This document shows positions 3,415-61,100 of a stretch of 64,000 nt of DNA, in pieces (within the stretch, counting starts at the first letter, position 1; every line of letters starts with the position of its first letter). Origin of the DNA: an uncultured Clostridia bacterium (lineage in GTDB: Bacteria; Bacillota; Clostridia; Christensenellales; UBA1242); contig CAMRVD010000001.1 in the NCBI GenBank assembly GCA_947054085.1, forward strand, positions 24,676-88,675, read 5' to 3'. The notes beneath the pieces are model-generated. The model was not told where the DNA came from, ran no database searches, and saw nothing but the letters and a program-made list of their open reading frames with translations. A program made the translations under genes and the position numbers.

Positions 3415-4086
3415 TTATTCTTTATGATAGATTGCATTTGCAGAACTATGTATTAACGTAGCAGTTTTTATTTCTGCATTCCTCTCTAATTGTATTATTC
3501 TTCGCTGAATTTCTTTTTGTTTTAATATGTCGTCGCTAGAAAGTTTATCAAGCTTTTCAGATTCGGCTTTTACCATTATTTCTGTTATTTTTGTAAAAAT
3601 GCGAAGGTAATCATCGTTGTATTTAACTAAAAAGTCACAATAATTTTTAACACTACCTATAAAATAATCCTGCAAATTTGTTGTATAATTTAAAATTTCG
3701 TTATCATCATCGCTAGTATAATCTAAAATTTCGTTATTATCATCGCGTTCTACTTTGGTTACCATTTTGCAGTTAGTTTCGTTTACATCAAAAATTTTTA
3801 TGTGGTGCTTATTATTTAAGTTAAAATCATATTTTATCTGCAAATAATTAGGATAATAGTAACCATCTGGCGAATACGCGTTTAATGCTTCGCACAATTT
3901 ATATTTATTTTCACAACCTAAAATATCAAAATTATAAAAATTGTACTTATTACTAGTTTTGTTATAAAAACCTACTTTTGCAGTTACAGACTCGTTAGGT
4001 TTTAAATTTTCTAAATCTATATCTAAAATATCTTTTAAAAATAATTTTAAATCTTTTATTGTTACATTACTCTTCACGTTGCACAA
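3415..4086 (-). CDS. hypothetical protein (paralog of 4097..4717)
   Basis: Long ORF, co-oriented with and 10 nt downstream of its paralog. N-termini align (SNVTIKDLKLFLKDI vs SNIKIKAVKNFICDV). Start uncertain (TTG 4086 or GTG 4077). Internal repeat DDNNEILDYTS/DDDNEILNYTT. Confidence 0.6.
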   Translation of the reverse strand: MCNVKSNVTIKDLKLFLKDILDIDLENLKPNESVTAKVGFYNKTSNKYNFYNFDILGCENKYKLCEALNAYSPDGYYYPNYLQIKYDFNLNNKHHIKIFDVNETNCKMVTKVERDDNNEILDYTSDDDNEILNYTTNLQDYFIGSVKNYCDFLVKYNDDYLRIFTKITEIMVKAESEKLDKLSSDDILKQKEIQRRIIQLERNAEIKTATLIHSSANAIYHKE

Positions 4087-4096
4087 ACTCCCTGTA

Positions 4097-4717
4097 TTAT
4101 TCTTCGCCGGGCTGACTATTTTTTTGTAAAAATGCTTCTGCCGCCTTTGTAGACTTTTCTATTTTTTTAGAAGTTATTTTTAACAAACTTTTAACATGTT
4201 CTATATTGCTTCTATAATTTTCTATTTCGGATTCTGTTTTATTATAAAAATACCTATGTTCCTGCTCATTATCTTCTATAAGCGCTTTTGCGTAACCACT
4301 ATCCTGCTCCATAAAATACTTTTGCATTTTTTCGGATAAATTTTCCGCATGCATAGCAACTTGGTCAAAATATCTTCTACCATGAGCATCATCATAAAAT
4401 TCTACTTCTTCGTAACGATAACTACAATATTTTTGATCAAGAACCAATCTTTTTTCTAGTGTTATATTATCATACCCACTATATCTATATATACATTCTA
4501 TTTGCATAGGATGGTCAAACCTTAAATCACCGTTGCTTCCTATTAAGTCTCCCAAAGTTTTACTGTCTTTAAGTTCTAACTCTTCAAATTCGTATCCGCC
4601 ATCATAATAATTGTATTTTGACAAATAAACTTCTGCTTTTTTTAGTTCTTCCTTAGAAATACCAAAAACATCACAAATAAAATTTTTAACTGCCTTTATT
4701 TTTATATTAGATTCCAC
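4097..4717 (-). CDS. hypothetical protein (paralog of 3415..4086)
   Basis: GTG start at 4717 with GGAGGG SD. Consensus promoter directly upstream. No family recognised. Confidence 0.6.
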   Translation of the reverse strand: MESNIKIKAVKNFICDVFGISKEELKKAEVYLSKYNYYDGGYEFEELELKDSKTLGDLIGSNGDLRFDHPMQIECIYRYSGYDNITLEKRLVLDQKYCSYRYEEVEFYDDAHGRRYFDQVAMHAENLSEKMQKYFMEQDSGYAKALIEDNEQEHRYFYNKTESEIENYRSNIEHVKSLLKITSKKIEKSTKAAEAFLQKNSQPGEE

Positions 4718-4746
4718 TTTTTAACCCTCCAAGTTTACTTAATAAA

Positions 4747-4775
4747 AGTATACCCCACCATTGTTAATCTGTCAA
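4747..4775 (-). promoter_or_regulatory. near-consensus sigma-A promoter for the 4717..3415 gene pair
   Basis: - strand TTGACA (4775-4770), 17 nt, TATACT (4752-4747), about 30 nt before the GTG start. Confidence 0.7.
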
Positions 4776-4882
4776 CCCCCAACTTTGTAGAAAATTTTAA
4801 TAAAATACAAACAAAAAGATTGGTAATTAAATAATAGATCAAACTAAATCCCTCAGTCTCGTCACAACTCTTGCAATGTTTC

Positions 4883-4964
4883 TCGCAATTTAAAAACTTG
4901 CTCCTCATTAGCAAGGTTGCTCCTCTCCCCACAAAGTGATACTTTGCGGGGACCCCGTAAATAC
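4883..4964 (+). repeat. X-family repeat, copy 1
   Basis: TCGCAATTTAAAAACTTGCTC ... CTCCTCTCCCCA - hairpin (CCCCACAAAGT/ACTTTGCGGGG) - GGGGACCCCGTAAATAC. Homologous to 9174-9260. Confidence 0.6.
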
Positions 4965-5205
4965 TTGCCAACTCCACTTGCAGGGGAGCCACTAGTTACG
5001 CTAAACAAATTGTTACAAAAAAAGGAAACATGGTGTCTCCTTTTATATAATTATTAAAACAACTTTTATCTTTACCAAAAGCTTTTAACGACAAGAATTA
5101 GATGAAATATAAAGAAATAAACCCCTCAGTCAGCCTCTGGCCGCCAGCTCCCCTTGTGTAAATTGCAATTTTTTTATCACCAGCTCTAAATTGGGGGAGC
5201 CCTTG

Positions 5206-5251
5206 GCAGACGAGGATTTTACTAAGCGTAAATGACGATGTCTGCTTTTTT
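5206..5251 (+). repeat. short copy (A) of the palindromic element: stem + conserved apex + T6
   Basis: GCAGAC-GAG-GATTTTACTAAGCGTAAATGAC-GAT-GTCTGC-TTTTTT. Confidence 0.7.
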
Positions 5252-5299
5252 AGATTTTCTACAACTAGTTATTTTTAATGTAAATAATATTCAAACTCC

Positions 5300-5427
5300 T
5301 TTTAACGGCATAATTTTAGATTAGACGAGAGCATAATAAAACCCCACGATGCGATTTTACTTTGCGTAAATGAGCAGTGTGGGGTTTTATGTATAAACGA
5401 AGTATAACTAAAATTATGCCGTTAAAA
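5300..5427 (+). repeat. full-length 128-nt palindromic element (B), also the tuf terminator
   Basis: 19-bp perfect outer stem 5300-5318/5409-5427. Inner stem AAAACCCCAC/GTGGGGTTTT. Apex GATTTTACTTTGCGTAAATGAG. The right arm ends 1 nt from the tuf stop codon (5429-5431). Confidence 0.8.
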
Positions 5428-5428
5428 A

Positions 5429-6646
5429 CTATTTAATAATTTTAGAAACAACACCAGAACCAACAGTTCTGCCACCTTCACGAATAGCGAAGCGAAGTCC
5501 TTCTTCGATAGCAACAGGAGTAATTAGTTTAACTGTCATGCTTGTGTTATCGCCAGGCATAACCATCTCGGTACCTGCAGGTAGTTCGATAGAACCAGTA
5601 ACGTCTGTGGTACGGAAATAGAATTGTGGACGATAGTTGTTGAAGAATGGAGTATGACGACCACCTTCGTCTTTGGTTAGAACGTATACTTCTGCGTTAA
5701 ACTCGGTATGTGGATGTATAGAACCTGGTTTGCAAAGTACTTGACCACGTTCTACATCGGTTCTTTGGATACCACGTAGTAGTACACCAACGTTGTAACC
5801 AGCAACAGCTTCGTCAAGAAGTTTACGGAACATTTCGATACCGGTAACAACTGTAGATTGTTTAGCTTCTTTTAGACCTACGATTTCTACAGTGTCGTTA
5901 AGTTTAAGAACACCACGTTCTACACGACCAGTAACAACTGTACCACGGCCAGTGATTGTAAATACGTCTTCGATAGGCATTAGGAATGGTTTGTCGTTAT
6001 CACGAGCAGGAGTAGGAATGTAAGCGTCTACTGCGTCCATAAGTTCGCGAATAGCTTTTACATTGTCTGAATCCCATTTGCCAGCTTTAGCATCTTCTAG
6101 AGCTTGGAAAGCTGAACCACGGATAATAGGAGTGTTATCTCCGTCGAAACCGTAGTTAGAAAGAAGTTCTCTAACTTCCATGTCTACAAGGTCTGCAAGT
6201 TCTAAATCTGAGCCTAGTTGGTCCATTTTGTTCATAAATACAACAATTTTTGGAACACCAACCTGACGAGCAAGTAGAATGTGCTCTCTTGTTTGAGGCA
6301 TAACACCGTCGGTAGCAGCAACTACAAGGATAGCGCCATCCATCTGAGCAGCACCGGTGATCATGTTTTTAACATAGTCAGCGTGTCCTGGGCAGTCTAC
6401 GTGAGCGTAGTGACGATTTGCAGTTTGGTACTCGATATGAGCGGTATTAATTGTTATACCTCTTGCTTTTTCTTCTGGTGCTGAGTCTATTTGATCGTAG
6501 TCTTTAATTTCTTTGTTACCTGGGTCGTAGTCGTGTCCCATTATAAAAGAAATAGCAGCACTTAAAGTTGTTTTACCATGGTCAACGTGGCCGATTGTAC
6601 CAACGTTAACGTGTGGTTTTGAGTTGTCAAATTTTTGTTTTGCCAT
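5429..6646 (-). CDS. tuf: translation elongation factor Tu
   Basis: [22 protein letters not shown] and the whole-length EF-Tu sequence are unmistakable. 405 aa. Confidence 0.98.
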
Positions 6647-39406: not shown

Positions 39407-40246
39407 ATGTACTCAAATATTGCATTAAAAATATTTGCAGCCTTGTGCGAAGGTAAAATAAATTCCAGAACTATGTTTTGGAAAAGTTTTGCAGATCAAA
39501 AAATTTTTGAAAACCTTGAAATAGATTTTCAAAAATATATTAATATATTAAAATCTGCGGATTATAATTTAGTTTGCTATTTTGACGAAAACTTTCCTAT
39601 TATAGAACCAAATATCAAACCCGCCGACCGCCCATTTTTATTTGCATACAAGGGTGATATTAGTTTGCTTAGTCATGTGCAAAAAAATATCGCTGTGGTT
39701 GGGGTGCTAACCCCAGTGCAAAATATAGAACAGAGGGAGCAAAAACTTGTTGCCGACTTAGTTGCAAAAAAAGTTTAACATAGTAAGTGGACTGGCCACT
39801 GGTTACGACACTATTGCACACAAATCTTGCCTAGCATGTGGTGGTAAAACTATTGCTATTTTACCAACAACGTTCAGCAATGTTTTCCCTAAAGAAAATG
39901 CTGGTTTGGTAAACGAAATAGTTAATGCTGGTGGGCTGATTATAACCGAATATGTTAGCGAGCCAAAATCTCGTGGAGAACGGATAAATCGCTTTATTGA
40001 ACGCGATCGCTTGCAAGCCATGTTTGTAAAAGCTGTTGTTTTGGTAGCAAGTTATTTGCCCGGTGCGGGAGATAGTGGCTCTCGCCACGCTATGCAAAAG
40101 CAAAAGAATATGGCAAACATCGCCTAGTTATGTATAACCCTATAATTGACTTAGATAGTCCGCTTTTTGGACTGAATAAAAAATTGCTCAGCGAAGGCGT
40201 TGAACAAGTAACAGCAAAGAGTTTAAGGCCTTGGGAGAACCCATGA
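39407..40246 (+). pseudogene. dprA: DprA/Smf-like (SLOG fold) gene broken by two frameshifts
   Basis: …IAVVGV…SGLATGYDTIAH…TIAILPTTFSNVFPKENAGL…FIERDRLQA…GDSGSRHAM. Shift 1 is in A7 at 39766-39772, shift 2 near A4 at 40096-40099. The last fragment ends in TGA overlapping the next gene's ATG (ATGA, 40243-40246). Confidence 0.75.
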
Positions 40247-40782
40247 CTATAATATGCGATCTTGATGACACACTAATTTATACAACACAATTAAACAATG
40301 ACGCATATAATTATGCTTTGGAGCATTTTGGGTATAAACGAATAGATGATACTGATAGAATAATAAGGCAATGCTTAAATTTTATAAATAAAACAGCATT
40401 AGATAAAATAATTGCTTTAAAACAGATTTACTTTAACCAAAATTGGTTAAAATATAGAACAATTATAAACGAAATTTTACTAAACAAACTAAAAACTTAT
40501 GGCAAACAAAATTGTTATCTTTGGACAACAGCAGATAAAACCCGAGTTTCATCAATAACTTGGCACTACCAACTAGACCGTTACTTTTCAGATATTATTT
40601 TTGACCCTAAAACAAATTTTGTTAATTCTCTAGACCTTATCAAGACAAAATGTTGCTTTAAAAATTGCATTATTTACGAAAACAACCCTAACAATTTTAA
40701 CCCGCTGTTTCATCAAATAAAAATGGTCGACCACATAAGTACTAACTCTTTTGACGTAAAAGGGTATATGATAAATTTATAA
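40243..40782 (+). CDS. HAD-superfamily hydrolase-like protein
   Basis: N-terminal motif I DLDDT (MTIICDLDDTLIY). ATGA overlap with the dprA-like reading frame. Confidence 0.6.
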   Translation: MTIICDLDDTLIYTTQLNNDAYNYALEHFGYKRIDDTDRIIRQCLNFINKTALDKIIALKQIYFNQNWLKYRTIINEILLNKLKTYGKQNCYLWTTADKTRVSSITWHYQLDRYFSDIIFDPKTNFVNSLDLIKTKCCFKNCIIYENNPNNFNPLFHQIKMVDHISTNSFDVKGYMINL

Positions 40783-40785
40783 AAT

Positions 40786-40819
40786 AAAATCACTCAGAAA
40801 ATTTTTCTGAGTGATTTTT
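40786..40819. terminator. bidirectional intrinsic terminator
   Basis: AAAATCACTCAGAAA-ATT-TTTCTGAGTGATTTT between the HAD gene and the tRNA-fMet 3' end. Confidence 0.8.
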
Positions 40820-40821
40820 AA

Positions 40822-40898
40822 TGGTTGCGGGAGCAGGATTTGAACCTGCGACCTTCGGGTTATGAGCCCGACGAGCTTCCGAGCTGCTCTATCCCGCG
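40822..40898 (-). tRNA. initiator tRNA-fMet (CAU), CCA encoded
   Basis: The reverse complement reads CGCGGGATAGAGCAGCTCGGAAGCTCGTCGGGCTCATAACCCGAAGGTCGCAGGTTCAAATCCTGCTCCCGCAACCA. C1/A72 mismatch and three G-C pairs closing the anticodon stem are initiator hallmarks. Confidence 0.93.
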
Positions 40899-40929
40899 AT
40901 ATTAAATTATTGACCTTGATTTATTTTTA

Positions 40930-41026
40930 CCCGAAGGTCTTCGGGTTATACTCGGGCAAGCCTCGTGGCGTTCGCTATCGCTCGGCTAAGGAGCTAACGA
41001 ACTATCCAAGCTTACTATCCCGCGAT
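40930..41026 (-). pseudogene. decayed tRNA-fMet-derived segment inside the tRNA-fMet leader
   Basis: ATCGCGGGATAG (41026-41015) and ATAACCCGAAG repeat tRNA positions. They are interrupted by …CTTAGCCGAGC…GAACGCCACGAGGCTTGCCCGAGT. No T-arm or acceptor 3' strand. Confidence 0.5.
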
Positions 41027-41050
41027 ATGCGGCTTTTGCAAAGCCCTTAT

Positions 41051-41079
41051 ATAATATAGCAATATTTAAATATTGTCAA
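41051..41079 (-). promoter_or_regulatory. consensus-like sigma-A promoter for the tRNA-fMet transcript
   Basis: - strand TTGACA (41079-41074), 17 nt, TATTAT (41056-41051). Confidence 0.7.
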
Positions 41080-41128
41080 GGTTATTTAAAAATAAAATAA
41101 TATTTTTTATCTAACATTTTTAAAAAGG

Positions 41129-41157
41129 TTGACAAATGTCTTTTTTTATACTATTAT
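41129..41157 (+). promoter_or_regulatory. consensus-like sigma-A promoter for the tRNA-Met/tRNA-Glu transcript
   Basis: TTGACA (41129-41134), 17 nt, TATTAT (41152-41157). Confidence 0.7.
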
Positions 41158-41264
41158 ACAAAAGCATAAACTTTAAGTTTTGTATTTGTAGCTGCTTAGC
41201 GATAGTATTGCTAGAGTGACTGATTTGTGCCCTGTAGGGTCTACTTGGTACAAATTTACATAAT

Positions 41265-41372
41265 ATTGTGGCGGCTTTGTACAAGATTATTAAAGCATCT
41301 GGTTCCTCAGCCGAAGCACAAAAAGTGCCGAACGCCACGAGGGCTTGCCCAAGTATAACTAGTAGGTCGTAG
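41265..41372 (+). pseudogene. decayed tRNA-Met-derived segment inside the tRNA-Met leader
   Basis: ATTGTGGCGGCTT (= 41413-41425), CTGGTTC, then …CTCAGCCGAAGC…GAACGCCACGAGGGCTTGCCCAAGT, then ATAACTAGTAGGTCGTAG (cf. ATACCCAGTAGGTCGTAG in the tRNA). Confidence 0.5.
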
Positions 41373-41417
41373 AACTACTGGGGAAATGGTTTACTTAGGG
41401 TGCAATTTAATAATTGT

Positions 41418-41494
41418 GGCGGCTTAGCTCAGTTGGCTAGAGCGCCTGGTTCATACCCAGTAGGTCGTAGGTTCAAATCCCACAGCCGCTACCA
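41418..41494 (+). tRNA. tRNA-Met (CAU), elongator type, CCA encoded
   Basis: GGCGGCTTAGCTCAGTTGGCTAGAGCGCCTGGTTCATACCCAGTAGGTCGTAGGTTCAAATCCCACAGCCGCTACCA. The anticodon loop TTCATAC resembles elongator Met; a tRNA-Ile2 (lysidine) identity cannot be excluded. One A/C mismatch in the T-stem. Confidence 0.85.
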
Positions 41495-41508
41495 CAATCT
41501 TTTAATAT

Positions 41509-41583
41509 GGTCCCATGGTCAAGCGGTTAAGACATCGCCCTTTCACGGCGGTAACAGGGGTTCGATTCCCCTTGGGACTACCA
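41509..41583 (+). tRNA. tRNA-Glu (UUC), CCA encoded
   Basis: GGTCCCATGGTCAAGCGGTTAAGACATCGCCCTTTCACGGCGGTAACAGGGGTTCGATTCCCCTTGGGACTACCA. Confidence 0.92.
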
Positions 41584-41587
41584 AAAC

Positions 41588-41616
41588 AAAAGCTGCCTTT
41601 TGGCAGCTTTTTGTTT
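41588..41616 (+). terminator. intrinsic terminator after tRNA-Glu
   Basis: AAAGCTGCC-TTTT-GGCAGCTTTTTGTTTT. Confidence 0.8.
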
Positions 41617-41868
41617 TGTCCTAAATAAGCGAACAGCAACAAGGTTGCAAGGCACATAGCCGAGCAACTTACAGTGTCCCCCCCCCCAACGAGTTTTAAA
41701 ATCAAACTTTTTGAGGAGAGGCACTTATGTTGTAAGCTGATATTTACGTAAAGCAAACCGAAACAAAACCATAAGTGTGAAGACGCCACAAAGAATGGAC
41801 TCAAGTATAACATAAAAAGTTGAGGTAAAATTAATAAAGCCAACTACACTAGTTGACTTTTTATTTTA

Positions 41869-42153
41869 TTATTTTGTTGGTACATAAATTTTATCTCCGG
41901 GCTGAGCAAGGCCTAATTCCTCACGGGCTTGTTGCTCTAAATAGCTGCCGGTTTCCTGAAGTTTAATGTTGTTTTCTAATTGCTTTTGCTGTTGGGTTAA
42001 CGCTATAGACATTTGATCTAATTTTTTAGACTTAGCTTTAAGCACGCCAATTTTTATACACTGATAACTTATTATGCACACAGCGCATAACACAAAAGTT
42101 GTAACCAAAATTGTTGTTAATTTTACTACTCTTTTAAATTTTTGTGGTGTCAT
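41869..42153 (-). CDS. divIC: septum formation initiator (DivIC/FtsB family)
   Basis: N-terminal TM, coiled coil, C-terminal …EEQAREELGLAQPGDKIYV. yabP-yabQ-divIC synteny. Confidence 0.72.
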   Translation of the reverse strand: MTPQKFKRVVKLTTILVTTFVLCAVCIISYQCIKIGVLKAKSKKLDQMSIALTQQQKQLENNIKLQETGSYLEQQAREELGLAQPGDKIYVPTK

Positions 42154-49138: not shown

Positions 49139-52100
49139 TTAACTTAAAGTTATTGTAATATTGTCAAACTCTACACCATCAGCACCCGAGTCATCCATAT
49201 TAATAATAGGATTATCCAGTTCGCTATCGTTATCGTTAGAGATTTTAATATGGCTATATTGTCCCGCACATGCACCAGTAAAGAAGAATAAGTAACTTTG
49301 AACAGTTCCTGTATTATCTACAGGCACAACACCAATCATATCTATGTTGCAAGCTTTTACATAGCTACCATCTTGCTGGTTAAATATTATACCTGCCCTA
49401 GTAGCATTTTGTATTTGCATACGATAAATGGCTGCACCTTTTTCCTCTGTATTTTCGTCTTTACTTGCAGAGTTTATGTATAGTTCGCCAATTACATTAA
49501 ATAATGTTAGACCTTGACCATCGCCATAATCTATATTTATAGCCGCACTATTTGGGTTGCCCGAATTAAATTTAAGTACGCTACCAGCACTAACCTCGAA
49601 TACACTACCACCAGTGAATGTACCACCAGTTTTTGTAATTTTTAATGTAGCACTGGTACCGTTTGTAGTACCCTCTACTTCGTCACCCGAAACAACTAAT
49701 CCTAAAGTATTGATTGTAAGTTTTATAGGACTACCATTATTAGTCGTTAGCTTAATAGTTTTATTTATATTATAAACTCTACTATTTATACCATCGTTGT
49801 ATAGATTAATTATAGCGTCAGTAATATTATTTTCTACAATCCAGTTGTAGGCAGCCATAAAGTCGTTTGCACAGGTTTCTGTATCGGTTTGTTTAAAGTT
49901 TCCAAAACCTTTATGCTTTTTATAGCCATCGCCATACTCTACCCAAACACTAACAGGTTTCCATTCGCCAGCTAATTTAATATTACCAGCGTCTTTGTTA
50001 TCCCAAAGCAAGATTGTAGAATTATCTCCACCTATGCTTTGTAAATAGCCCTTAAGAATACTAAACTCGTTGTACTGATTTAATGTTCCGTCACTACCAT
50101 AAATAGACCACTCGCCTTGGTTATTTGTGCTATAACCAACCAATCTATAATGCGTTATATCAGCGATTTGATTTAGTGTAAAGTGGTTATAATCCACATT
50201 TCCTTCTGGTATTGTTTGAGTGTATTGTTCTAGAGGATCATCATTACTGTCTGCATAATAGTATATTGTACCATATTTATTAAACTGAACATTAACTACA
50301 ATATTGCGGTTAAATAAATTTTGATTAGTTTCGACTTTAGCCGCTAAGCTATGACCCGCACCGCTTTGATCAGCTTCGCTAGTAATGTTGTAATTAATTT
50401 TACTACCAGTTATAACGCCTTCGTCAGAATGCTGTTCTGTATAAACTTCTGTTAGCTTGTAGAAGTAATAGAAGGTTTCTACCTTTACATCGGCTTTATC
50501 CCAATAGGTTATAAAGTCGCCATGAACAAGTGAACTAAAGCTATTGCCATTTTCGCTAGATATTACCAAATAATTACTACCTATCATAGCGTAAGCAGTT
50601 TTACTAGTGTAACTATTTTGTACTTCTGCACTTAAGTTAGCAATGGTATTATCATATTTAGTTCTGTCTATATTAGTAAATGTCAATAATCGTTCGATAG
50701 CTGTTCCCTTAAACAGTTTAACAGTTATTTCTACCTTAGCTGCACCTTGTTGTAATGATCCGCCAGAATATATATTAATTAAGTCGTTTAAGCTTACGTT
50801 AGAATATATTGGATCACAATCTACTATTGCACCTATTGTAGTAAGATTTCTTGTTATATCACTAAACTGCACAACATATTTTCTGTCAGTACCTTCGCCC
50901 TCCAACTTAATTGATCCAAAATTAATTGTGTTTATAATTATAGGAACTTCTGCAGAACTTAGTAAAGTTTTATTTTCTCCATTGTAAATTGCATCATTAT
51001 TTGCATAATTTAAGATATCATCATGAGGAGTTAGTGTAACTCTTTCGCTTTGGTAAGCAGTTATAACAATATCGTTGGTAAACAATACTTCATCTTCTAT
51101 TCCAGCAAAGTTAGAAGTCGGTACTTTACGAATTACTCTATTAGTAACAGTAAACTGCATTTTATGATACCAATTAGCAGTTAAATTTAGAGTAATATCG
51201 CCAGAATTATTTCCGTTTAAGACAACTACTTCCCAATTGTTATTATCATAAATATTAATACCATTAATATTATCAAACACTAATTCGCCTAACGTTCCGT
51301 CAGCTTTTAGGTTCTCTCTGTACGCAAATGTAATAGCACTACCACCATTAATAGGTGTACTTACAATATTTGCAAGTTTACGAGGACCATTATCTACATC
51401 CTTTAGTAAATCGTAAAGGTCGCTGTTTTGTAAGTTTATTATGTCTTTATACCAACCTGTGACTGTGCCCATAATGCGATTTGAATCGGCATCAAAAACT
51501 TTAAGCGTAATCTTTGCTTGGTTATAAGTAACGGTAATTATATCACCTTGTGCTAGTGGCAAGTACGTTGTTTCGCCGTTTATAGTTGTAGAACAATATT
51601 CGCGACTTATAGTACCTAATATGTTACCTGTTGTTTCGCTATTAGTATTTACATCACTTACATAGCTAATTCCACTTATGTAATAACCATTATTTACTTT
51701 TGCCGTTGCTGTATATTTTATACGATCACCGGCGTAAATAGTTATAGTTTTACGAACCGAAGTATTAATAGTAGCACTAGCAATATCTGCAACTACACTA
51801 TCCGCATAATAGTAATTTAAAGTGCTATCTGCATTATTTACTAATCTGTTGTGTCTATCAAACTCTTCTAAATAATTTATACCTTGAAGTGTAAACTCGC
51901 CAGCATCTGCAGTTATATTATCCAACCCACCAGTATGCTCTGCATCTAACACGCTATCTACATTAATTTGGATTGTCTTTAATGTTAATAGTACAACAAT
52001 GTATATATCGTCACCATTATTTGCATCAAATGCAGGAAGAATTGTGCTATCAGTTTTTTGTGTAATTATAACTTTTCCGCTTGAAGTTATAATAGCGTAA

Positions 52101-55100
52101 CCAAATAGATTGTAATAATCAAATTGTTCGGTATCAGAAAGCCCAAGGACAGAGCCTGTAGCAATACTATTATCAGTTAAGTATAATCCGTAGCTTTGTT
52201 TAAAGTTATAGGTTACACCTAACCTATCTGATAACACTAAACCACCAGACAAATCTGCCGATAGTTGCTCGAAGTCTGATGCGTCTATAGCTATAATTGA
52301 TTTTGCAGGGTTTTCTACCACATTATAAACATTAGCTGACCAAATAGGAGATAATCTTGTACCATTGTTAGTTTTATTAAATGGGTTTTTAAGGTTTACA
52401 GAAGTTTGCGATATTTCTACTTGGTCTTTGCTATCTGCTAAATCAAAACCAGATAAGTGGTAACCAGTTTTTGTGCCAATAATGCTTGTTATCTTATAAA
52501 CATCAGTAGTTTTACCGTTATATTCTGGATTTTGGTTAGACCAATATAATCCAGTATCTGCAAACAATCCATAAATGTTACCAACAGCTGTAGTCGAATT
52601 GTAAACTTCGCCATTAGTACCTGCTATAAAGCTAATATTTTCGCCATCCTTAGCATTAACATTTAAGCTAAAGTATTTTGCCGCCATTGTAGCAGTAAGT
52701 TGTAGCTCACCAGTATATGTATAAGGTTTATCTAAACTATTAAAGTTGTTCATTTCTCCTGCTACTAAGTTATATAGAACACTATTAGAGCTTCCGCTTG
52801 CAGCCACAAACTGATAACCATTATTGGTAGAAACACCACCAAGTGTTACTTCTTTATTTATGTTTAAATTAGAAATTCTGTGAGCAATACCGCTACTATC
52901 TTTTACATAAAGTTCGGTAGAATCAAACTTAATAAATATATTGTCTATATCGTTAAAGGCTTGACTACTACTTGTAATAAATGCACTTAAGTTATCTGTT
53001 GTTTTATTTGTAAAGCTTATATTATATAAATTAGCTTCCCAAATAGCATAAATTGTAAGTTCGCCATCGTATATCCATCTGCCGTCTACATCTGCAAACG
53101 AAGAGCCTTTTACGATTGTTCCAGTTTCGTCAAACACCATTTGACCATCTACAGTGTTACCTGCGGAATAGAATCCTTTAAATGTATATCCATTTACACT
53201 ATAAAGTAATTTTACTGTTACTTTTTGATCGTAAGTAACAACATGGCTTGTTTTAAAGTTTCCTGTTGTATCTGTTATAGGTGTTCCAAAGTAGCTTATT
53301 GTATTATAAGTACTCATATAAACTGGACTATCTGGGTTTGCACTGGCATTTGCGTTAAGTGTTACCGTGTAGTTTTTAGCAGTCCATCTAGCAAATAAAG
53401 TTAGTGAATTTCCATTTGCAGGAATATGTTTCCATACTCCATCTATAATGTAAGCGTTAGTAGTGGTATCTGTTATTGGATTACCATTACTATCGTATAC
53501 AAGCACGCCGTCTTCGCTAGCCCAGCCGCCAAATGTGTAACCAGCAGCCGTTGGGTTAATATACCCCGATAGACCACTTAAGCTATTAACTGCATCGTTG
53601 TATCTAATTATAAACTGAGAAATACCCATCTCTACAGATGTATTTGGTTTGTCTGCATCTGCAGCTTTTGGCGTGTTAGGATTTAGATAAATTGTATAAC
53701 TTTGTGCCGACCAGTTTGCAGTTAAACTAAAGCTTCCCCAAATTCCTGCAGATAGTATTAGATTTTCGCCTTCGGCAATAATGTTCACTTCGCCAAAAGT
53801 ACTATTAACGCCCGTACTATCAACCGACCAACCAGTAAAGTTGTATCCATCCTTTGTAGGATTACTTAATTGTAAAGTCTGCTCGTCTGCATTGTAAGTA
53901 TACTCTTTTGGTGTATTTAAGCCTTCTGTTCCGCCGTCTAAATTATAAGTTATCTGATATTCGCCAGCTGCATAAATTGCCTTAAGGGTAACGTTTCCAT
54001 AATTTCCTTTACCTAAGTGCATGTCTGTTAACTGAGCACCATTTACAAAACTGCCAGATGTTGACATAACTAAATAGTAAGCTAAATTAAAGCCAGGATT
54101 TTTTGCTTTAGGTAATGTAATATCGCTTTCGTAAGTATACTCTAATGGTTCTATTGCTTCGCCGCCATTAGTATCAAAAGTGATAGTATATTTATTAACT
54201 TGCCATTTTGTGTATAGGTCTATGGTAGCATTAGCAGCCGCTGCGTACACCCACTTACCATCTGATATATATCCATTAACATCTGTAACCGCAACACCGC
54301 TGTTTGTAAACAACTGCACACCATTTTCGGTTCTGGAAGTATAGTAACCAAGTAATGTATAACCATTAGCTGTTGGCATACTTGTAATTTGAGCTATGCT
54401 ATTGTCAAATATTACATTTACAGTAGTTGTTCCAGCAGTAATATCACTAGTCATTCCGCTAATTGGAGTCTGGTTTAGGTTAAGTGTATATGTATGTGCC
54501 TGCCACCTAGCATAAAGGTTAACGACTCTTTCGCCATTGCTATTTTCGGCAGCGTCATAAATCCAGTTGCCAGCTTCGCTTACATAAGAGGTTCCAAGAA
54601 CCACTCTTCCATCAGCCCCAAACACTTGAACGCCAGTAGATTGACCCGAGTAGAAGCCCATAAATGTATAACCATTAGCCGATGCCATAGCTTGTATATT
54701 TACACCACCATCAAACCTTACTTGTGGATTTGGTACTTGAACGCCGCCAGATGTAATATTAATGGTTATAGTGCTGCTCATATTAATTGGCTTATTATTG
54801 TTAAAGCTTAAAGTAATGCTATTAGCACTCCAAACTGCATATAAAGTAAATACCTTTGCATTATTTACTACACTTGCACGGTTGTACCACGAGTTAACAT
54901 ACTCGGTAATACTTGCATCTCCGCTATTTGTAGCTGGTATACGATTAGTAGAAAGAACATCGCCATTTGTAGTTGTAGACCAACCCATAAATGTGTATCC
55001 GCTAAGAATGTAATTATTAACAGATAGGGTTAAGCTACTATCGTAAGTCGCAATACTATTTGCTGTATTTCCGCTAATATTGCTGCTTGCACCATTAGGT

Positions 55101-58100
55101 TTGTTGCTATTATATTCCACAATAAATGTATCTGCTTGCCAAGACGCGTACAATTGTACATTTTGACTACTGTTATCTTTTATCCATTTACCATCTAAAA
55201 TATATTCGCCATTTACAACATAGCCATTTTCGTCAAATACTTTTTCGCCGCCTACACTTGCACTATAGTATCCCATAAATGTATAACCGGCAGCCGATGC
55301 ATAACTTCTAATGTTTACAACAGCATCAAAGGTTACTTTGTATTCTGTAATAACAAAGCCTTGCAAATTAGTTACAGTTTTAATAATCTCACTGGTCATC
55401 GCTTTAGAGCCAGTTGGTTTGTTATCATTAAATACTAAATTATAAGTTTTATTCTCCCATACTGCGTAAAGCGTCTTTGTACCATTTTCTTTATACTCGT
55501 CGCTATTAAACCAGCTATTCACCATTGTACTATCTGCAGTAGCACCATTTGTTAATACAACAGCACCATCCGAAGTTTCTGCCCAACCCATAAATGTATA
55601 TCCACTTAAAATGTAAGTGTTTATATTTAATGTTAAGCTTTGATCAAATGACACTACGCTACTTGTCATAGGTTCGGAAGATACACTTGTACTAGCATCT
55701 TCTACTTGGTTAGAGTTGTAAACAACTTCTATTGTATTTGCTTGGAAGTGTGCATACAATGTTAGCCATTCGTCATTTTCGGCATAAGCCCATTTACCTT
55801 CGTCGTTAGTATAGCCTGTTACACCTTTTACAACTGCTCCGGTTTCGTCAAATATTTTTTCGCCACCATCGCTTTCGGTGTAAAAACCTGTAAATGTATA
55901 ACCAAATGCACTTGCTTTTGCACTAATATTAACAGCTAAATCAAAAGTAACTGCATTTGATAACGAGTAAGATCCGTTGGTAATTGGTACTTCATTGCCA
56001 TCTATAATAACAACAATATGACTAGACATATCGCCCTTGTTTGTACTAAATACCAAACCCATGGCTTTGTTAGCCCAGTTTGCATATAAAGTAAAGCTTT
56101 GATCATGTGTTAAATTATATGCATTTTCTACATAATCTTTATCGCCGCTAACCGCTTGTATACCATCAGTTATTGTCCATGCGTTTGGTTGATAACCGTT
56201 TGCAGTCATTGAGTTTGTTTGAAGAATAACATCTTCGCCAAAGACTTTGTAAGTTGCACTAGGAAGCCCAACTGCAGCAGGTACTAATGAGTTTTGAGCG
56301 TATGTAATTATGTATTGCTCTCTTAAATAAAGTGTAATATTAGATTCTTTATTTTCTGCACTACCAGTAGGAAGCCAACTATATTCGATACTATTTGTAT
56401 TACTATTAACAGTAGGAACACTATTAACATCCAAATAATATTGATAATCTCCGTTAACTGTAGAAATTGTAATTATAACTTGGTTTGTTTCGCTATAATT
56501 AGCTTTAATTTGTCCGGTAAGGTTGCTAGCATTAAGAATAAATTCTGTGTCGCCAGCAGAAACTCTAACACCAGTTGCATGAGTTGTTCCTGCGTCTAGG
56601 CTGATATTTAAAGTAATCTCCCAAATCTTCCAGTTAGAATATAATTGTAAATCTGCATTTGCCGAGTATACTGCACCCGAAACATATGTAGGTTCGTCTA
56701 AAATAGCAGATTTATCTGTTACCCAGCCATTAGCACTATAACCGGTAGTTACCAGCGAGTTATTTGCCAATGTTACATCTGTACCATACACCTTGTCGAT
56801 ACTTACAGGAAGTGTACCAGTTACTGGCTTGCCTGCAAGATTATTTAATGTATGATTATAGCTAATTGTATAATGTTTATATGCAGATAAAGTTATATGT
56901 GCATCTTCTGTAGAAATCCAGTTATATGTTGTGCTGTTTAGATCACTACTTGTTGTAATATTGCCATTTGTAGATAGATAATATCCGTCTAATGCAAAAG
57001 TAACAACTACAGGCTCACCATTAAACTCGTGATTTTTTACAATAGTAACACTGCTGCCGTTATAGGTAATAGACGATGCACTAAGAACGCCGCCTTCGCT
57101 AGCTTCGCCCGTTACTGGAAGCACTCCGTATTTTGCGGTAATTAGAGCAATAAGACTATCACCATCAAAACCTGCATCTGTAAAGTCTATGGTTAAAGTA
57201 TATTTATTAATATTACAATTACTTGTAAACGTTACGTTTTTACCATTAAAGGTATTATATAATTCGTTGGCACTAACTTCTTCGTTTTGATTATATGTAA
57301 CTAAGTTGTTAGTTTCTGCACTACCAGTACTCCAAATACTAGTAAGAGCATTATATCCTAAATCTGCAAGTATTATTGGTGTAGTAAATGTTTGGTCGTA
57401 TGTAGCAGTTATGCTATTTACACTAGATGTACCATTATTTACAACCCAGTTGACTTTATATGTATTTGCTGTAAATGTTGCATAAACAATAGCATCACTA
57501 CTATGTATCCACTTACCATCCTTAGTAAACTCAGGAACATTAGATACAATGTTTCCGTTTGCATCAAATATAAGTTTAGCATCTTCGCCACTGGTGTAAT
57601 ATCCTGTAAAAGTATAACCGTTTGCCGAAGCAATAGCTAAAATACTTACTGTTTGATTAAATATAACTTTTGCTTTATTTATACTATGAGATACCTCACT
57701 AGTCATTGTGCTTGGCTTATCAAAAGTAAAGGTAATATTATACTCGTTAGCTTGCCAAACAGCTTCTAATGCTACATTGCCATAATAAGTAGATCCTGCA
57801 ACTGATGCTCCGCCGTTTAAAGTTGTATCTACTTCCCAGTTTCCTGTAGACTGAGTAACCTTCCAGTTAATAAATGTATATCCTGCTTTTGTAGCAGTAG
57901 CTATAGTAATATCGTCTGTATAAATATAGTTTGTTGTATGATCAACAGAAGAAATCACTCCGCCATTTAACTGGTAATTAACTTGGTAACTTGTATACTT
58001 AACATATACAGAACAAGCAATATCTTGATTTACAGTTAATAGAGTGCTGTAATTGGTGGTTTTTTCAGCATCTAACATAATGTAAGGTAAATCTGCTTTA

Positions 58101-61100
58101 TAATTATCTATAGTAACTTCGCTACCTTTTTTAATATAATACTCCGATGTACCCAAAACTTTGGTAGCCTTACCACCAGTAATAACATTTACACTGCTAT
58201 TAGCATCAGACACACTTTCGTTATTAAAGTAGAAAGCCACGTCTAATTTGCTTAATTGATCTATATATAGATAAACTATAGTATCATTATTTGCAGGCAT
58301 AACTATCGAAGTACTAACTTCGGTAGATATGTCGCCGTTGTTTAAATACAACGTATTTTCTAATGCTTTGCTCAAAAAGCTAATATAGTAAACCTTATCA
58401 GAATCTGCAGCTTTAATATACAAACCTACTCTTTCACCAAAGTTTCCATAGATACTAAAGTCTTGAATATCTTCTACAGCCGTCCATTCACTAATGCTGT
58501 TGGTTTTATATAATAAATTAGGAATATCGCTTCCGATAACATTTACCGTAAATTTATATTTAGCAACTTGATATTCTGCTTTTAATGTAATGTCGCCGTA
58601 TTTACCACTACTAATACTAAAGTCGCCATCGCCACTATAAGAAATAATATTATCGGTTAATTCTGCATCCCAGCTATTATTTTGTTGACTAGCAATCGAA
58701 TATCCAATAAAGTCGTACCCTTGTTTTGTTGGAACTGGTAAAGTTATTGTATCATTTATTGTATACTTACTGGTGTAATCACCGTCTACATTGCCATCAT
58801 CAAAATTATAGCTAATAGTATAAGTATTAATTGTCCAATCAATGGTAAATGTTACATTACCATATGCGTTAGTTATTTCTACAGCACCGCTTTCTGCAAT
58901 ATTTGCAAATACTTGGTTTGGTTTAAAGCTACTATCTGCATCTGCTTTTGTAACTTTAAAGCCACCAAAGCTATACCCATTGTTTGTAGGAATACTTAAC
59001 GAAAGACCACTTTCTATAGAATAATCTACATTTGTAGTGTCGTCACCATTAACTATAGTTGCTGTATAGCTATTTAAAGTAAACGTAGCAACAACTGTAA
59101 TATCTCCAAGATAAATATAGGTACGAGTTTCGCTTATGTAGTTAGCATTTTTAACAACGTTTCCGTCTTCGTCAAAAATTTTAACACTAGCATCGTCTTT
59201 TAATACATAGCCGGTAAATGTATAACCATTTGCTACCGCCATTGCATTAAAGTTTATTATGCTATCAAATAGTACACCTTTAGTGGTATAAGTTTGTACT
59301 ATTTCCACACTTTGCGGCATCGAATCTAATCTGCCATCGTTAAAGGTTATGGTGTACCGATTTGCACTCCATATTGCATAAAGTTGTTTTGTACCGTCTT
59401 TGCCAACACCGGCTTCCGAATACCAAGAATTAACAACTTCTTTGTCTATTTTTGAACCCTCGCTAAAGGAAGTTCCTTTTCCGTCTGCTCTGGTATTCCA
59501 ACTATCAAATGTATAGCCCGGTAAAACAAAGTTATTATTACTTAAAACAGCACTTTCACCATAAGTTGCAACTGAACTTTCGGTTACAGAGTCTTGTAAC
59601 TGAGTACTTGCAGATGATGGTTGATTACCGCTGTAGCTAATAGTAAAATTATCTGCTGTAAATACTGCTGCAATGTTACTTTGAGTAGTTAAAATATAGT
59701 CGCTTGTAAGTTCTGCTGTATTTAAGTTAACATTTACATCACCATTAAACCCTTGTAATGTGCTGCCAAATAAAGATCCTGTTATTGCAGTAATCTTATA
59801 AACTTCAGCATTATAACCTACATACTTAGGGTTAGAACTTGCAAAATACAATCCTTTTTGACCATAAATTGCATATAGTGTTCCGTTAGCAGTAATGGTA
59901 TATTCGCTTGCTGTGCTTCCTGCTGTATAAGCAAAATGCAATATACCACCATTAGCATCTATAAATATCTCATAGTAGTTAGCAGCTAACACAATTGTAA
60001 GAGTGTCAGTTGCATCTTTATTATAAACAGTGCTTAAGTTTGCAACATTATCGCTACCAATTATTACACTATTATCTGTAAGATTAGCAGCTGTTAAAGT
60101 AAATCCTGCTTTTGTTATAACTAAGTTTGTTACAGCAACATAATCGTCACCATCTTTAATAAATAATGTTTTGCTATCGTACTGAACATATAGTTTAAAA
60201 TCTGCATTAATTAAATTATCGTTTGCTGTAATGCTAGCACCATTATCGTTAATACTTAAAGCATAGTAATTTGCTGTAAATTTAGCTGTAAATACTAAAT
60301 CTCCATATGTTAAAGCATCTATACTTAATTTTCCATCTACAATGTCAGCACCATTATTATTGCAATCGAACGCTACAAAAGTGTAGCCTGTTTTAGCCAC
60401 AATAATGTTACTAGCTATTAAGTTATCACTTTCGCTTACTGTATAGGTAGTAGGAAGTATAGATTCTGCATTACCACCATTTAAATTAAAGGTTATTGTA
60501 TATGTGTTTCCGGTATATCTTGCGTAAAGATTAATACTTACATCTGTATTTGAAGTGCCAGCAAGATTTAATAGGGTTTGACCAGCAATATAAATTGTTT
60601 CGGTTTCGCCAGCAATTCTAGATGTACCTTGTGTTGTTGCCCAACCAGTAAGAGTCCAGCCACTAATAGAGCTATTTTGCAACTCGTCCTCGGTTAATGC
60701 ATTTTTTGCAGTATCGTATATATAAGTACTTTCGCCAAACAGCACTAAACCATTAAACGAATAGTATTTAATTGTATATTCGTTCGCCTTCCAAACAGCA
60801 TACAATGTAATTTCTTCGCCAGTTTTATCGGTAAGATTTAGTACCTGTTCCTCGTCGTTATATACTTTTGCTCCAGTGCTTGTGAGTGCCCAGCCTGTAA
60901 AAGTATAACCAATTAAACTAAATTGATTTGCACTTAAAGTAGTAGCGGTATCGTATTTATGATCTTGATTAGCCATAATACCGGATACTTCGCCACTGGT
61001 ATTAGCAGGTTTATTACTATTAAATTTAACTTGATACTCGTTAGCTTCCCACTGAGCTACAAAAGTTATATCGTAATAGATATGCTCTACAACTTGACTA

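Follow-up and report, generated by a model that had tools for sequence, protein, structure and literature searches.

How does a tRNA gene come to stand behind a decayed piece of its own sequence, and how do two different tRNA genes come to do so in the same way? The question is raised by a locus in a 64,000-nucleotide (nt) stretch of DNA from an uncultured Clostridia bacterium (assembly GCA_947054085.1, contig CAMRVD010000001.1; the whole stretch is called the window below). Here, two tRNA genes with a CAU anticodon, one for tRNA-fMet on the minus strand and one for tRNA-Met on the plus strand, are each preceded by a predicted leader that holds a degenerate 5' part of that very tRNA, interrupted in the anticodon loop by a short sequence, the module, that both leaders share. 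An earlier, model-made annotation (the original prediction) took the module for the possible stump of an intron or of another insertion aimed at anticodon loops, or else the leaders for tRNA-like regulators or decoys. The insertion-like layout proved real; neither the intron nor the regulatory or decoy interpretation held up. The answer we prefer, with about half of our confidence, is that the leaders are young, lineage-specific rearrangement debris, composed of pseudo-tRNAs and repeat scars, in a tRNA-gene hot spot.

Anatomy of the two leaders

Two sigma-70-like promoters lie back to back and divergent between the two CAU tRNA genes (coordinates of all features are given in Table 1). If these predicted sites are used, the leader would measure ~146 nt for tRNA-fMet and ~254 nt for tRNA-Met. 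Both leaders have the same layout, i.e., a tRNA 5' part, the module, and then tRNA sequence again from position 35. As the original prediction had it, the module follows C34 directly in both, with the left junction at an identical nucleotide in each of the two tRNAs. The strings that it quoted as tRNA copies all lie where it had placed them, and their repeats are exact: CTATCCCGCGATAT is present at 40889-40902 and again at 41015-41028, ATTGTGGCGGCTT at 41265-41277 and 41413-41425, and CTTCGGGTTAT at 40853-40863 and 40939-40949. In addition, behind each module the tRNA-like stretch leads into a fold-back, the anticodon-stem 3' strand in reverse complement.

The likeness of each leader to its own tRNA exceeds chance. 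In local alignments scored against 500 shuffles, the minus leader matched tRNA-fMet with a score of 26 (shuffle maximum, 25) and the plus leader matched tRNA-Met with a score of 33 (shuffles, 14.6 ± 2.1), whereas each leader scored at chance level against the other leader's tRNA. The Rfam tRNA model had no match inside either leader (40500-41800, E ≤ 10).

In the minus leader, the first 5 nt of ATAACCCGAAG, the segment that resumes the tRNA, overlap the ATAAC end of the module, and the fold-back CCTTCGGGT forms a hairpin with the preceding segment in every fold. The pseudo-tRNA-Met announced for the plus leader is present, in two units rather than one: a near full-length copy A without a module, and copy B, which carries the module and as a whole unit spans 41270-41417. 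The copy A tail aligns with the variable-loop and T-arm region of tRNA-Met, and the score of the copy B tail against it was reached by 0 of 3000 shuffles. The T-arm and 3' acceptor strand, said to be gone from both leaders, are indeed intact in neither module-bearing copy, with the amendment that a decayed 3' tail remains in copy B. Direct repeats flank both extra units, D4 (14 nt, 126 nt apart) the fMet unit and D7 (13 nt, 148 nt apart) the Met unit.

Two further candidates were rejected. The AT-rich spacer S2, upstream of the intact tRNA-fMet, did not align significantly as a decayed tRNA-fMet T-arm (p = 0.28), and ATAACCCGAAG-N0-3-CCTTCGGGT is no recurrent signature, its six metagenome matches being unrelated hairpins with no tRNA nearby.

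A three-part module dispersed over the locus

The two in-leader modules align with a score of 52, against 16.4 ± 2.1 for shuffles. They are ~85% identical to each other, and their core words occur at just these two sites within the 64 kb. An alignment of all copies resolves three parts, of which the 5' box (CTYAGCCGARGC) and the 3' box (GAACGCCACGAGG(G)CTTGCCCRAGTATAAC) are conserved and the interior is variable. The interior is a small hairpin (GATAGC, GTAAGC, or ACAAAAAGTGCC), and its length is 5, 6, 12, ~66, or ~114 nt, depending on the copy.

The module is not confined to 40930-41372, the range of the original prediction. Downstream of tRNA-Glu lies a split, decayed copy, with a 5' box carrying two mismatches at 41655-41668 and a 3' box at 41782-41811. 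The pattern ACGCCAC-N9-17-AAGTATAAC has 2 matches, against 0.00 expected. Taken alone, the distant 3' box scores poorly (nhmmer E = 13 when the model leaves this copy out); its place behind the spacer S1 and the 5' box lends it credibility. This copy ends ...AAGTATAAC/ATAAAAAG, with no tRNA sequence behind it. Judging from this end (41783-41811), ATAAC probably belongs to the module and not to the tRNA, which makes the 3' junction of the Met copy ambiguous over positions 35-39.

All credible copies in the window fall within 40945-41811, in both orientations within about 900 bp. The in-leader pair forms the inverted repeats I2 and I7, with arms of 14 and 18 nt that are 94-100% complementary, and brackets a ~355-nt segment holding both promoters. 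The original prediction had named a generic repeat, present at many non-tRNA sites, as what would speak against it. Copies lacking a tRNA 5' half do occur, after the tRNA-Glu terminator and S1, both in the window and in a second strain (L002, below), and truncated or expanded ones occur in L001, L003, and L007-L009; the objection is in part borne out.

Searches for relatives used scans that require an exact match to 19-22 specified bases, so that diverged relatives would escape them. Within that scope, no match was found in IMG/VR viral contigs or in JGI metagenomes; two further viral patterns gave 0 matches and 2 chance matches inside coding sequence, respectively; and the 25 matches in GTDB representative genomes were all chance, lying in coding DNA of unrelated, mostly GC-rich genomes. 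A blastn search of phage and plasmid records returned nothing relevant. Protein searches suggest that the genus is thinly represented outside ENA and Logan assemblies.

A local tRNA does not appear to be the source of the module: alignments to tRNA-fMet, tRNA-Met, and tRNA-Glu on both strands gave p > 0.1. In a free-end global alignment, the 3' box resembled fMet positions 14-34 read in reverse complement (p = 0.011, uncorrected for 8 tests), and this candidate was dropped when a whole-window scan ranked the site no higher than background. S1 resembles the module 3' box (p = 0.002); read as a decayed tRNA 5' half, it is not significant (p > 0.25).

Two observations concern the DNA around S1. 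The segment 41620-41835 (plus strand), in the 250-nt gap between the tRNA-Glu and DivIC terminators, includes S1 and the split module copy and folds with -47.1 kcal/mol (z = -3.2, beating 200 of 200 shuffles); it has no Rfam family match. Within it, a C homopolymer at 41678-41687 varies in length among strains, with 10 residues in the window, 9 in contig L001, and 8 in contig L003.

Strain and species comparison

The DivIC protein of the window is 100% identical on 20 contigs, two of which, L001 and L002, span the tRNA cluster. The locus was compared in these three same-species assemblies (the window, L001, and L002), and three arrangements were found, with DivIC 100% identical and flanking DNA ~99% identical.

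L001 adds to the window layout a unit of 209 nt, in which the tRNA-Glu 3' end, a terminator, and S1 are joined with a module whose interior measures 66 nt. This extra module ends in TTGCGAGT, which adjoins a tRNA-Glu fragment that begins at A58, in the T-loop. The same junction (G57/A58) is found in L003 and L007-L009, and in all five contigs the tRNA-Glu 3' end is duplicated (at least 19 nt in L001 and L003) and truncated or expanded module copies occur. Most of the alignment between the window and L001 shows a difference of ≤ ~1%. In the pseudo-fMet half, the two are separated by 8 changes within 19 nt, where L001 has the sequence of the real gene; the L001 segment equals tRNA-fMet positions 1-29 exactly.

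L002 is arranged differently. The minus promoter (41079-41051), kept in L001 and L002, is followed in L002 straight by an intact tRNA-fMet, and then by a NUDIX gene and a gene for a protein of 212 amino acids (aa). The plus leader has copy A and lacks copy B (41278-41406), which in the window lies between the two copies of a 13-19-nt direct repeat. Behind tRNA-Glu with its terminator, L002 has S1, then one complete module and ATAACCCGAAG with the attached fold-back, and finally S2 and, by the HAD gene, a second tRNA-fMet. This module, the sole complete one in L002, is preceded by S1 and not by a tRNA half. Copy A is ~25% different between L002 and the window, patches of it match the real tRNA, and the segment from the promoter to copy A is 89% identical (~11% different).

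By BLAST, the window and L001 carry the promoter-to-S1 block in the opposite orientation to L002. Both breakpoints fall at the module: the inverted block stops with S1 (last base, window 41651), which is homologous to S1 of L002 within a 94%-identical BLAST segment, and colinearity with L002 is restored exactly where the module starts (window 40990). The module 5' part of L002 (6256-6284) is matched by both the inverted and the colinear segments of L001, and in L001 the module 5' part stands at both ends of the inverted block.

Two more distant contigs help to orient these arrangements. In L044, from a sister species (DivIC 77% identical), the order NUDIX, terminator, and fMet is as in L002; the left side of L002 is thus probably ancestral. 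In L046, which is more distant (DivIC 62% identical), the promoters are directly followed by fMet, a plain 35-nt leader precedes Met-Glu, and neither the pseudo-tRNAs nor the module are present. The L044 contig stops inside tRNA-fMet at the anticodon loop (4290-4328, ...CTTCGGGTTA). This end could be an assembly-graph branch at a second junction, and low coverage is an equally good explanation.

The region between DivIC (window 41869-42153) and the tRNA cluster holds strain-variable cargo. There are no genes in it in the window, a NUDIX and the 212-aa protein in L002 (4291-5680), and a GDSL lipase with proteins of 517 aa and 191 aa (the latter P-loop-like) in a third type (L003 4353-7500; also L004 and L007-L010). 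Among the neighbouring window genes and the strain cargo, Pfam identified RadC, DprA, HAD, ABC transporters, LeuRS, NUDIX, and the lipase, and no recombinase. Tandem Repeats Finder reported no array in the L002 spacer.

Table 1. Features of the CAU tRNA locus, with positions counted from the first base of the window.
Feature	Position	Strand	Basis or remark
Intact tRNA-fMet(CAU)	40822-40898	minus	ARAGORN; Rfam tRNA model, 63.7 bits
AT-rich spacer S2, upstream of intact tRNA-fMet	40899-40928	minus	identical in L001 and L002
Fold-back CCTTCGGGT, reverse complement of tRNA-fMet positions 38-46	40929-40937	minus	inverted repeat I16
ATAACCCGAAG, tRNA-fMet positions 35-45	40939-40949	minus	repeat family D11, 100% identical
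Module copy 1, CTTAGCCGAGC / GATAGC / GAACGCCACGAGGCTTGCCCGAGT, 41 nt, plus ATAAC	40945-40990	minus	nhmmer E = 2.6e-11
Pseudo-tRNA-fMet 5' half, positions 1-34, D-arm region altered	40991-41024	minus	alignment to tRNA-fMet
Sigma-70-like promoter of minus leader and tRNA-fMet (predicted)	41051-41079	minus	TTGACA-17-TATTAT, 11/12
Sigma-70-like promoter of plus leader, tRNA-Met, and tRNA-Glu (predicted)	41129-41157	plus	TTGACA-17-TATTAT, 11/12
Pseudo-tRNA-Met copy A, near full length, anticodon region mutated, no module	~41191-41267	plus	alignment; repeat families D1, D2
Pseudo-tRNA-Met copy B, 5' part: GGCGGCTT, altered D-arm, TAAAGCATCTGGTTC to C34	41270-41305	plus	repeat families D6, D7
Module copy 2, CTCAGCCGAAGC / ACAAAAAGTGCC / GAACGCCACGAGGGCTTGCCCAAGT, 49 nt, plus ATAAC	41306-41359	plus	alignment, nhmmer
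ATAACTAGTAGGTCGTAG, tRNA-Met positions 35-52, 16/18 bases matching	41355-41372	plus	repeat family D3, 89% identical
Fold-back CTACTGG, reverse complement of true tRNA-Met CCAGTAG	41375-41381	plus	inverted repeat I19; hairpin in folds
Decayed copy B tail, homologous to copy A tail	41388-41417	plus	score 29 vs shuffles 13.7 ± 2.9
Intact CAU-anticodon tRNA, Met per ARAGORN (elongator Met or Ile2)	41418-41494	plus	ARAGORN and Rfam
tRNA-Glu(UUC) and terminator hairpin (tRNA itself 41509-41583)	41509-41611	plus	ARAGORN, Rfam
Spacer S1 (AAGCGAACAGCAACAAGGTTGCAAG; 41628-41651), then decayed 5' box (CATAGCCGAGCAAC; 41655-41668)	41628-41668	plus	homology to L002 S1
Decayed module 3' box (GACGCCACAAAGAATGGACTCAAGTATAAC)	41782-41811	plus	~114 nt beyond 5' box; longer module version

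A proposed rearrangement origin of the leaders

In the reading we prefer, the tRNA-fMet and tRNA-Met genes would have undergone local segmental duplication, leaving non-functional 5' fragments behind the native promoters, and these fragments would have been joined to copies of the locally dispersed module. Present in both orientations, the module copies, along with the other short repeats formed by tRNA genes and pseudo-tRNA pieces, would act as substrates for homologous recombination, generating inversions, duplications, and deletions, while gene conversion from the real tRNA genes may renew the ends of the pseudo-copies again and again. Such conversion would account for the likeness of each pseudo-copy to its own tRNA and for the identity of the terminal 13-14 nt. 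The whole stretch would be transcribed as a long 5' leader without sequence-specific function, presumably cut off by RNase P at the 5' end of the intact tRNA, as in tRNA maturation in general. The anatomy, the additional copies, and the differences among strains are observed; recombination, gene conversion, and leaders devoid of function are inferences. The direct repeats flanking the extra units fit slippage or unequal crossover, and the coincidence of the inversion breakpoints with module copies supports recombination among these copies. Similarly, the cluster of 8 changes in which L001 equals the real gene and the patches in copy A carry a signature of gene conversion.

Three routes could have led to these 8 clustered changes: gene conversion of L001 by the real gene, a templated (quasi-palindrome) change in the lineage of the window, or selection for a hairpin. 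Quasi-palindrome mutagenesis by template switching was reportedly described by Ripley in 1982 and later in work of the Lovett laboratory. The cluster resembles what gene conversion and template switching would each leave, in that one of its two states equals the nearby gene and the other is more complementary to the inverted partner. In the window, the pseudo-fMet half and the module form a predicted duplex of -29.1 kcal/mol, against -20.0 ± 3.5 kcal/mol for shuffled modules (p about 0.014). Statistically, the gain in pairing is modest, with p about 0.10 against random 8-substitution variants. For the 5' halves of the real tRNAs, the module shows no greater complementarity than its shuffled versions do (z about 0).

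Several points weigh against a rearrangement origin. The C34/A35 left junction is identical in two tRNAs, and a third junction, G57/A58 in tRNA-Glu, also lies in a loop; three junctions in tRNA loops are unexpected under random illegitimate recombination. The shared C34/A35 junction might go back to a single original event, followed by duplication and conversion of the flanks. The 71% identity of tRNA-fMet and tRNA-Met is, at the same time, poor homology for mutual gene conversion. The ~15% difference between the in-leader modules is far beyond the differences among strains, which makes them older than those rearrangements and implies their retention. The complementarity between the pseudo-fMet half and the module might also reflect selection for a hairpin. 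Finally, just three assemblies span the locus, and no complete series of steps between the L002-type and the window-type arrangements emerged from them.

A possible remnant of a mobile element

The loop junctions are the point of departure for an alternative in which the module is the cargo-less remnant of a small site-specific element that recombined with the 7-nt loops of tRNAs, its boxes being the ends of the element, its variable interior the leftover of the cargo, and the pseudo-tRNA pieces att-type junctions. We regard this as possible but doubtful. That it represents an undescribed small insertion element acting at C34/A35 of CAU tRNAs and at G57/A58 of tRNA-Glu, with its recombinase encoded elsewhere and its copies driving the inversions and duplications, is unlikely. 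All three junction types (fMet C34/A35, Met C34/A35, and tRNA-Glu A58) lie in tRNA loops, the ends of the module are conserved among copies and its interior is variable, and between DivIC and the tRNA genes the cargo varies by strain, as is typical of hot spots of tRNA-linked integration. The crossovers of tRNA-targeting tyrosine integrases, moreover, classically fall in anticodon loops and T-loops (Williams 2002, cited in PMC9897764; PMC4383910).

Against such an element stands the absence of any integrase, transposase, or HUH gene from the window neighbours and the strain cargo. No target-site duplication is seen, the tRNA sequence being contiguous across the module; the ends (CTTAGCC... and ...CCCGAGT) are not terminal inverted repeats; and no sequence overlap exists between the module ends and the tRNA loops, as a tyrosine or serine recombinase would need. 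The left flanks of the module (CTC, TTC, or GCG) offer no fixed target word, which, or else a target-site duplication, would go with terminal inverted repeats or subterminal hairpins in miniature inverted-repeat transposable elements (MITEs) and other small non-autonomous transposons, IS200/IS605-derived ones included. Several copies have S1 rather than a tRNA at their left, and no copy was found beyond the locus in the 64 kb or in the searched collections.

Partial tRNA genes beside intact ones are known to result from mobile-element integration (sublocation scheme of Williams 2002; van der Gulik et al. 2023, PMC9897764; Islander, PMC4383910). The locus shares with these integration scars the tRNA fragments beside an intact copy, the direct repeats of tRNA sequence, the junctions in the anticodon loop and T-loop, and the strain-variable cargo at a tRNA cluster. 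Unlike in them, the fMet and Met fragments are 5' parts, the opposite of the usual bacterial attR fragment, and they lie upstream of the intact gene in a transcribed leader; the displaced 3' part of a tRNA that is usual in such scars is seen here only for the tRNA-Glu fragment, in other strains. The extra DNA measures just 126-148 nt, has no integrase, and contains the same ~45-nt repeat at every junction. Judged by its sequence, the locus would thus differ from known partial-tRNA scars in having 5' fragments inside transcribed leaders and one local repeat at each junction.

The inverted modules around the promoter segment also recall another kind of variable locus. Invertible promoter segments flanked by inverted repeats, or 'invertons', have reportedly been found in gut bacteria by Jiang et al. 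in 2019, and here, too, a larger inversion separates strains. Unlike in invertons, no invertase gene is nearby, the inversion observed uses other module copies as its end points, and flipping a bidirectional promoter would switch nothing off.

The improbable case of a functional leader RNA

It is improbable, in our view, that the leaders are functional RNAs, i.e., tRNA-like or hairpin elements of the pre-tRNA that tune the processing, stability, or expression of the CAU tRNAs, or that act as decoys or sponges. Such a function would be in keeping with the strong promoter-like sites in front of both leaders, with modules kept at ~85% identity despite being older than the strain-level rearrangements, and with the hairpin of anticodon-stem 3' strand and complement that follows both modules. 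The window minus leader folds as a long imperfect hairpin (z = -2.5), its pseudo-fMet 5' half is significantly complementary to the module, and at three positions where L001 has C the window has T, each time gaining a pair with a module A. However, the feature is dispensable among strains: L002 lacks copy B and has fMet straight behind its promoter, and the leaders of L046 are short. The copies have no consensus structure (RNAalifold -2.1 kcal/mol, no consistent helices), shuffles fold as well as the plus leader and the versions in L001 and L002 do (z from -1.1 to -1.8), no Rfam family matches, and exact-pattern scans of GTDB representatives and JGI metagenomes found the feature in no second species. 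The regulatory or decoy role proposed earlier accordingly finds no support.

The rejected reading as an intron stump

Bacterial group I introns occur in anticodon loops, e.g., in tRNA-Leu(UAA), cyanobacterial tRNA-fMet, and Azoarcus tRNA-Ile(CAU). The module likewise intervenes in the anticodon loop of CAU-anticodon tRNA sequences, and the last bases of the putative exon pair with it in a loosely P1-like manner (GCTC/GAGC in fMet and TTC/GAA in Met, with one compensatory change). It is nonetheless highly improbable that an intron, self-splicing (group I) or of another kind, once interrupted the anticodon loop and left the module as its stump, given that no group I or group II model is among the 29 Rfam matches at E ≤ 10 in 40500-41800, which leaves the leaders with neither an intron nor a tRNA covariance match and the module with no ribozyme core; that C34, and not the U of the U-G pair of P1, precedes the module in both copies, and T rather than G ends it (GAGT/A, AAGT/A); that the tRNA behind it comprises only positions 35-45 (fMet) or 35-52 (Met), so that its removal and ligation would yield no tRNA; and that some copies have no tRNA half on their left. 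At 41-49 nt, the module is about five times too short for a group I intron (the original prediction, too, had called it far too short for a functional one), and the longer 114-nt copy has no intron match either.

Gene neighbourhood

At the gathering threshold, an Rfam scan of the whole window found the three tRNAs and nothing else. The genes around the locus encode RadC, a split DprA, a HAD hydrolase, DivIC, YabQ, YabP, LeuRS, and ABC transporters, a gene content that points to a spore-former-like, low-GC organism of the Bacillota. DprA (39407-40127, plus strand) is broken into two overlapping open reading frames (ORFs) of 123 aa and 121 aa, which suggests a frameshift or a pseudogene. Gene calls for DprA differ in other strains and include one of 238 aa whose product has the Pfam DprA (DNA_processg_A) domain; this product matches the HAD-like protein of the window with 93% identity over 55% of the latter. 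In contigs of a related species (L037-L042, ~3850-6500), the DNA beside DprA-HAD has a rolling-circle Rep gene (PF23343 REP_ORF2-G2P), together with an antitoxin-like gene and small ORFs, and looks like an integrated small element.

Homologues of the neighbouring proteins were also followed outside the species. HAD homologues (~45-50% identity) and NUDIX homologues (65-68% identity) lie in a different context with no tRNA, the sole homologue with a named source is a NUDIX hydrolase, 59% identical, in a metagenome-assembled genome of 'Candidatus Caccovivens', and exact-protein look-ups of the neighbouring proteins gave either no match or contigs ending short of the tRNAs. Far from the locus, a single ORF of 4926 aa occupies 49139-63919 on the minus strand. 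A module-like 29-mer antisense in it (54628-54656, 21/29 identical) was judged a chance match (nhmmer E = 0.4-0.7).

Concluding remarks

The locus shows how a tRNA cluster may gain transcribed pseudo-tRNA leaders along with a local repeat that reshuffles it. Taken as rearrangement debris, it is a peculiarity confined to a single species of uncultured, Clostridia-like gut bacteria and a caution against mistaking such debris for introns or regulators. It would gain in importance if the loop junctions were the footprint of a new element targeting tRNA loops, or if the long leaders affected the supply of initiator or elongator tRNA-Met.

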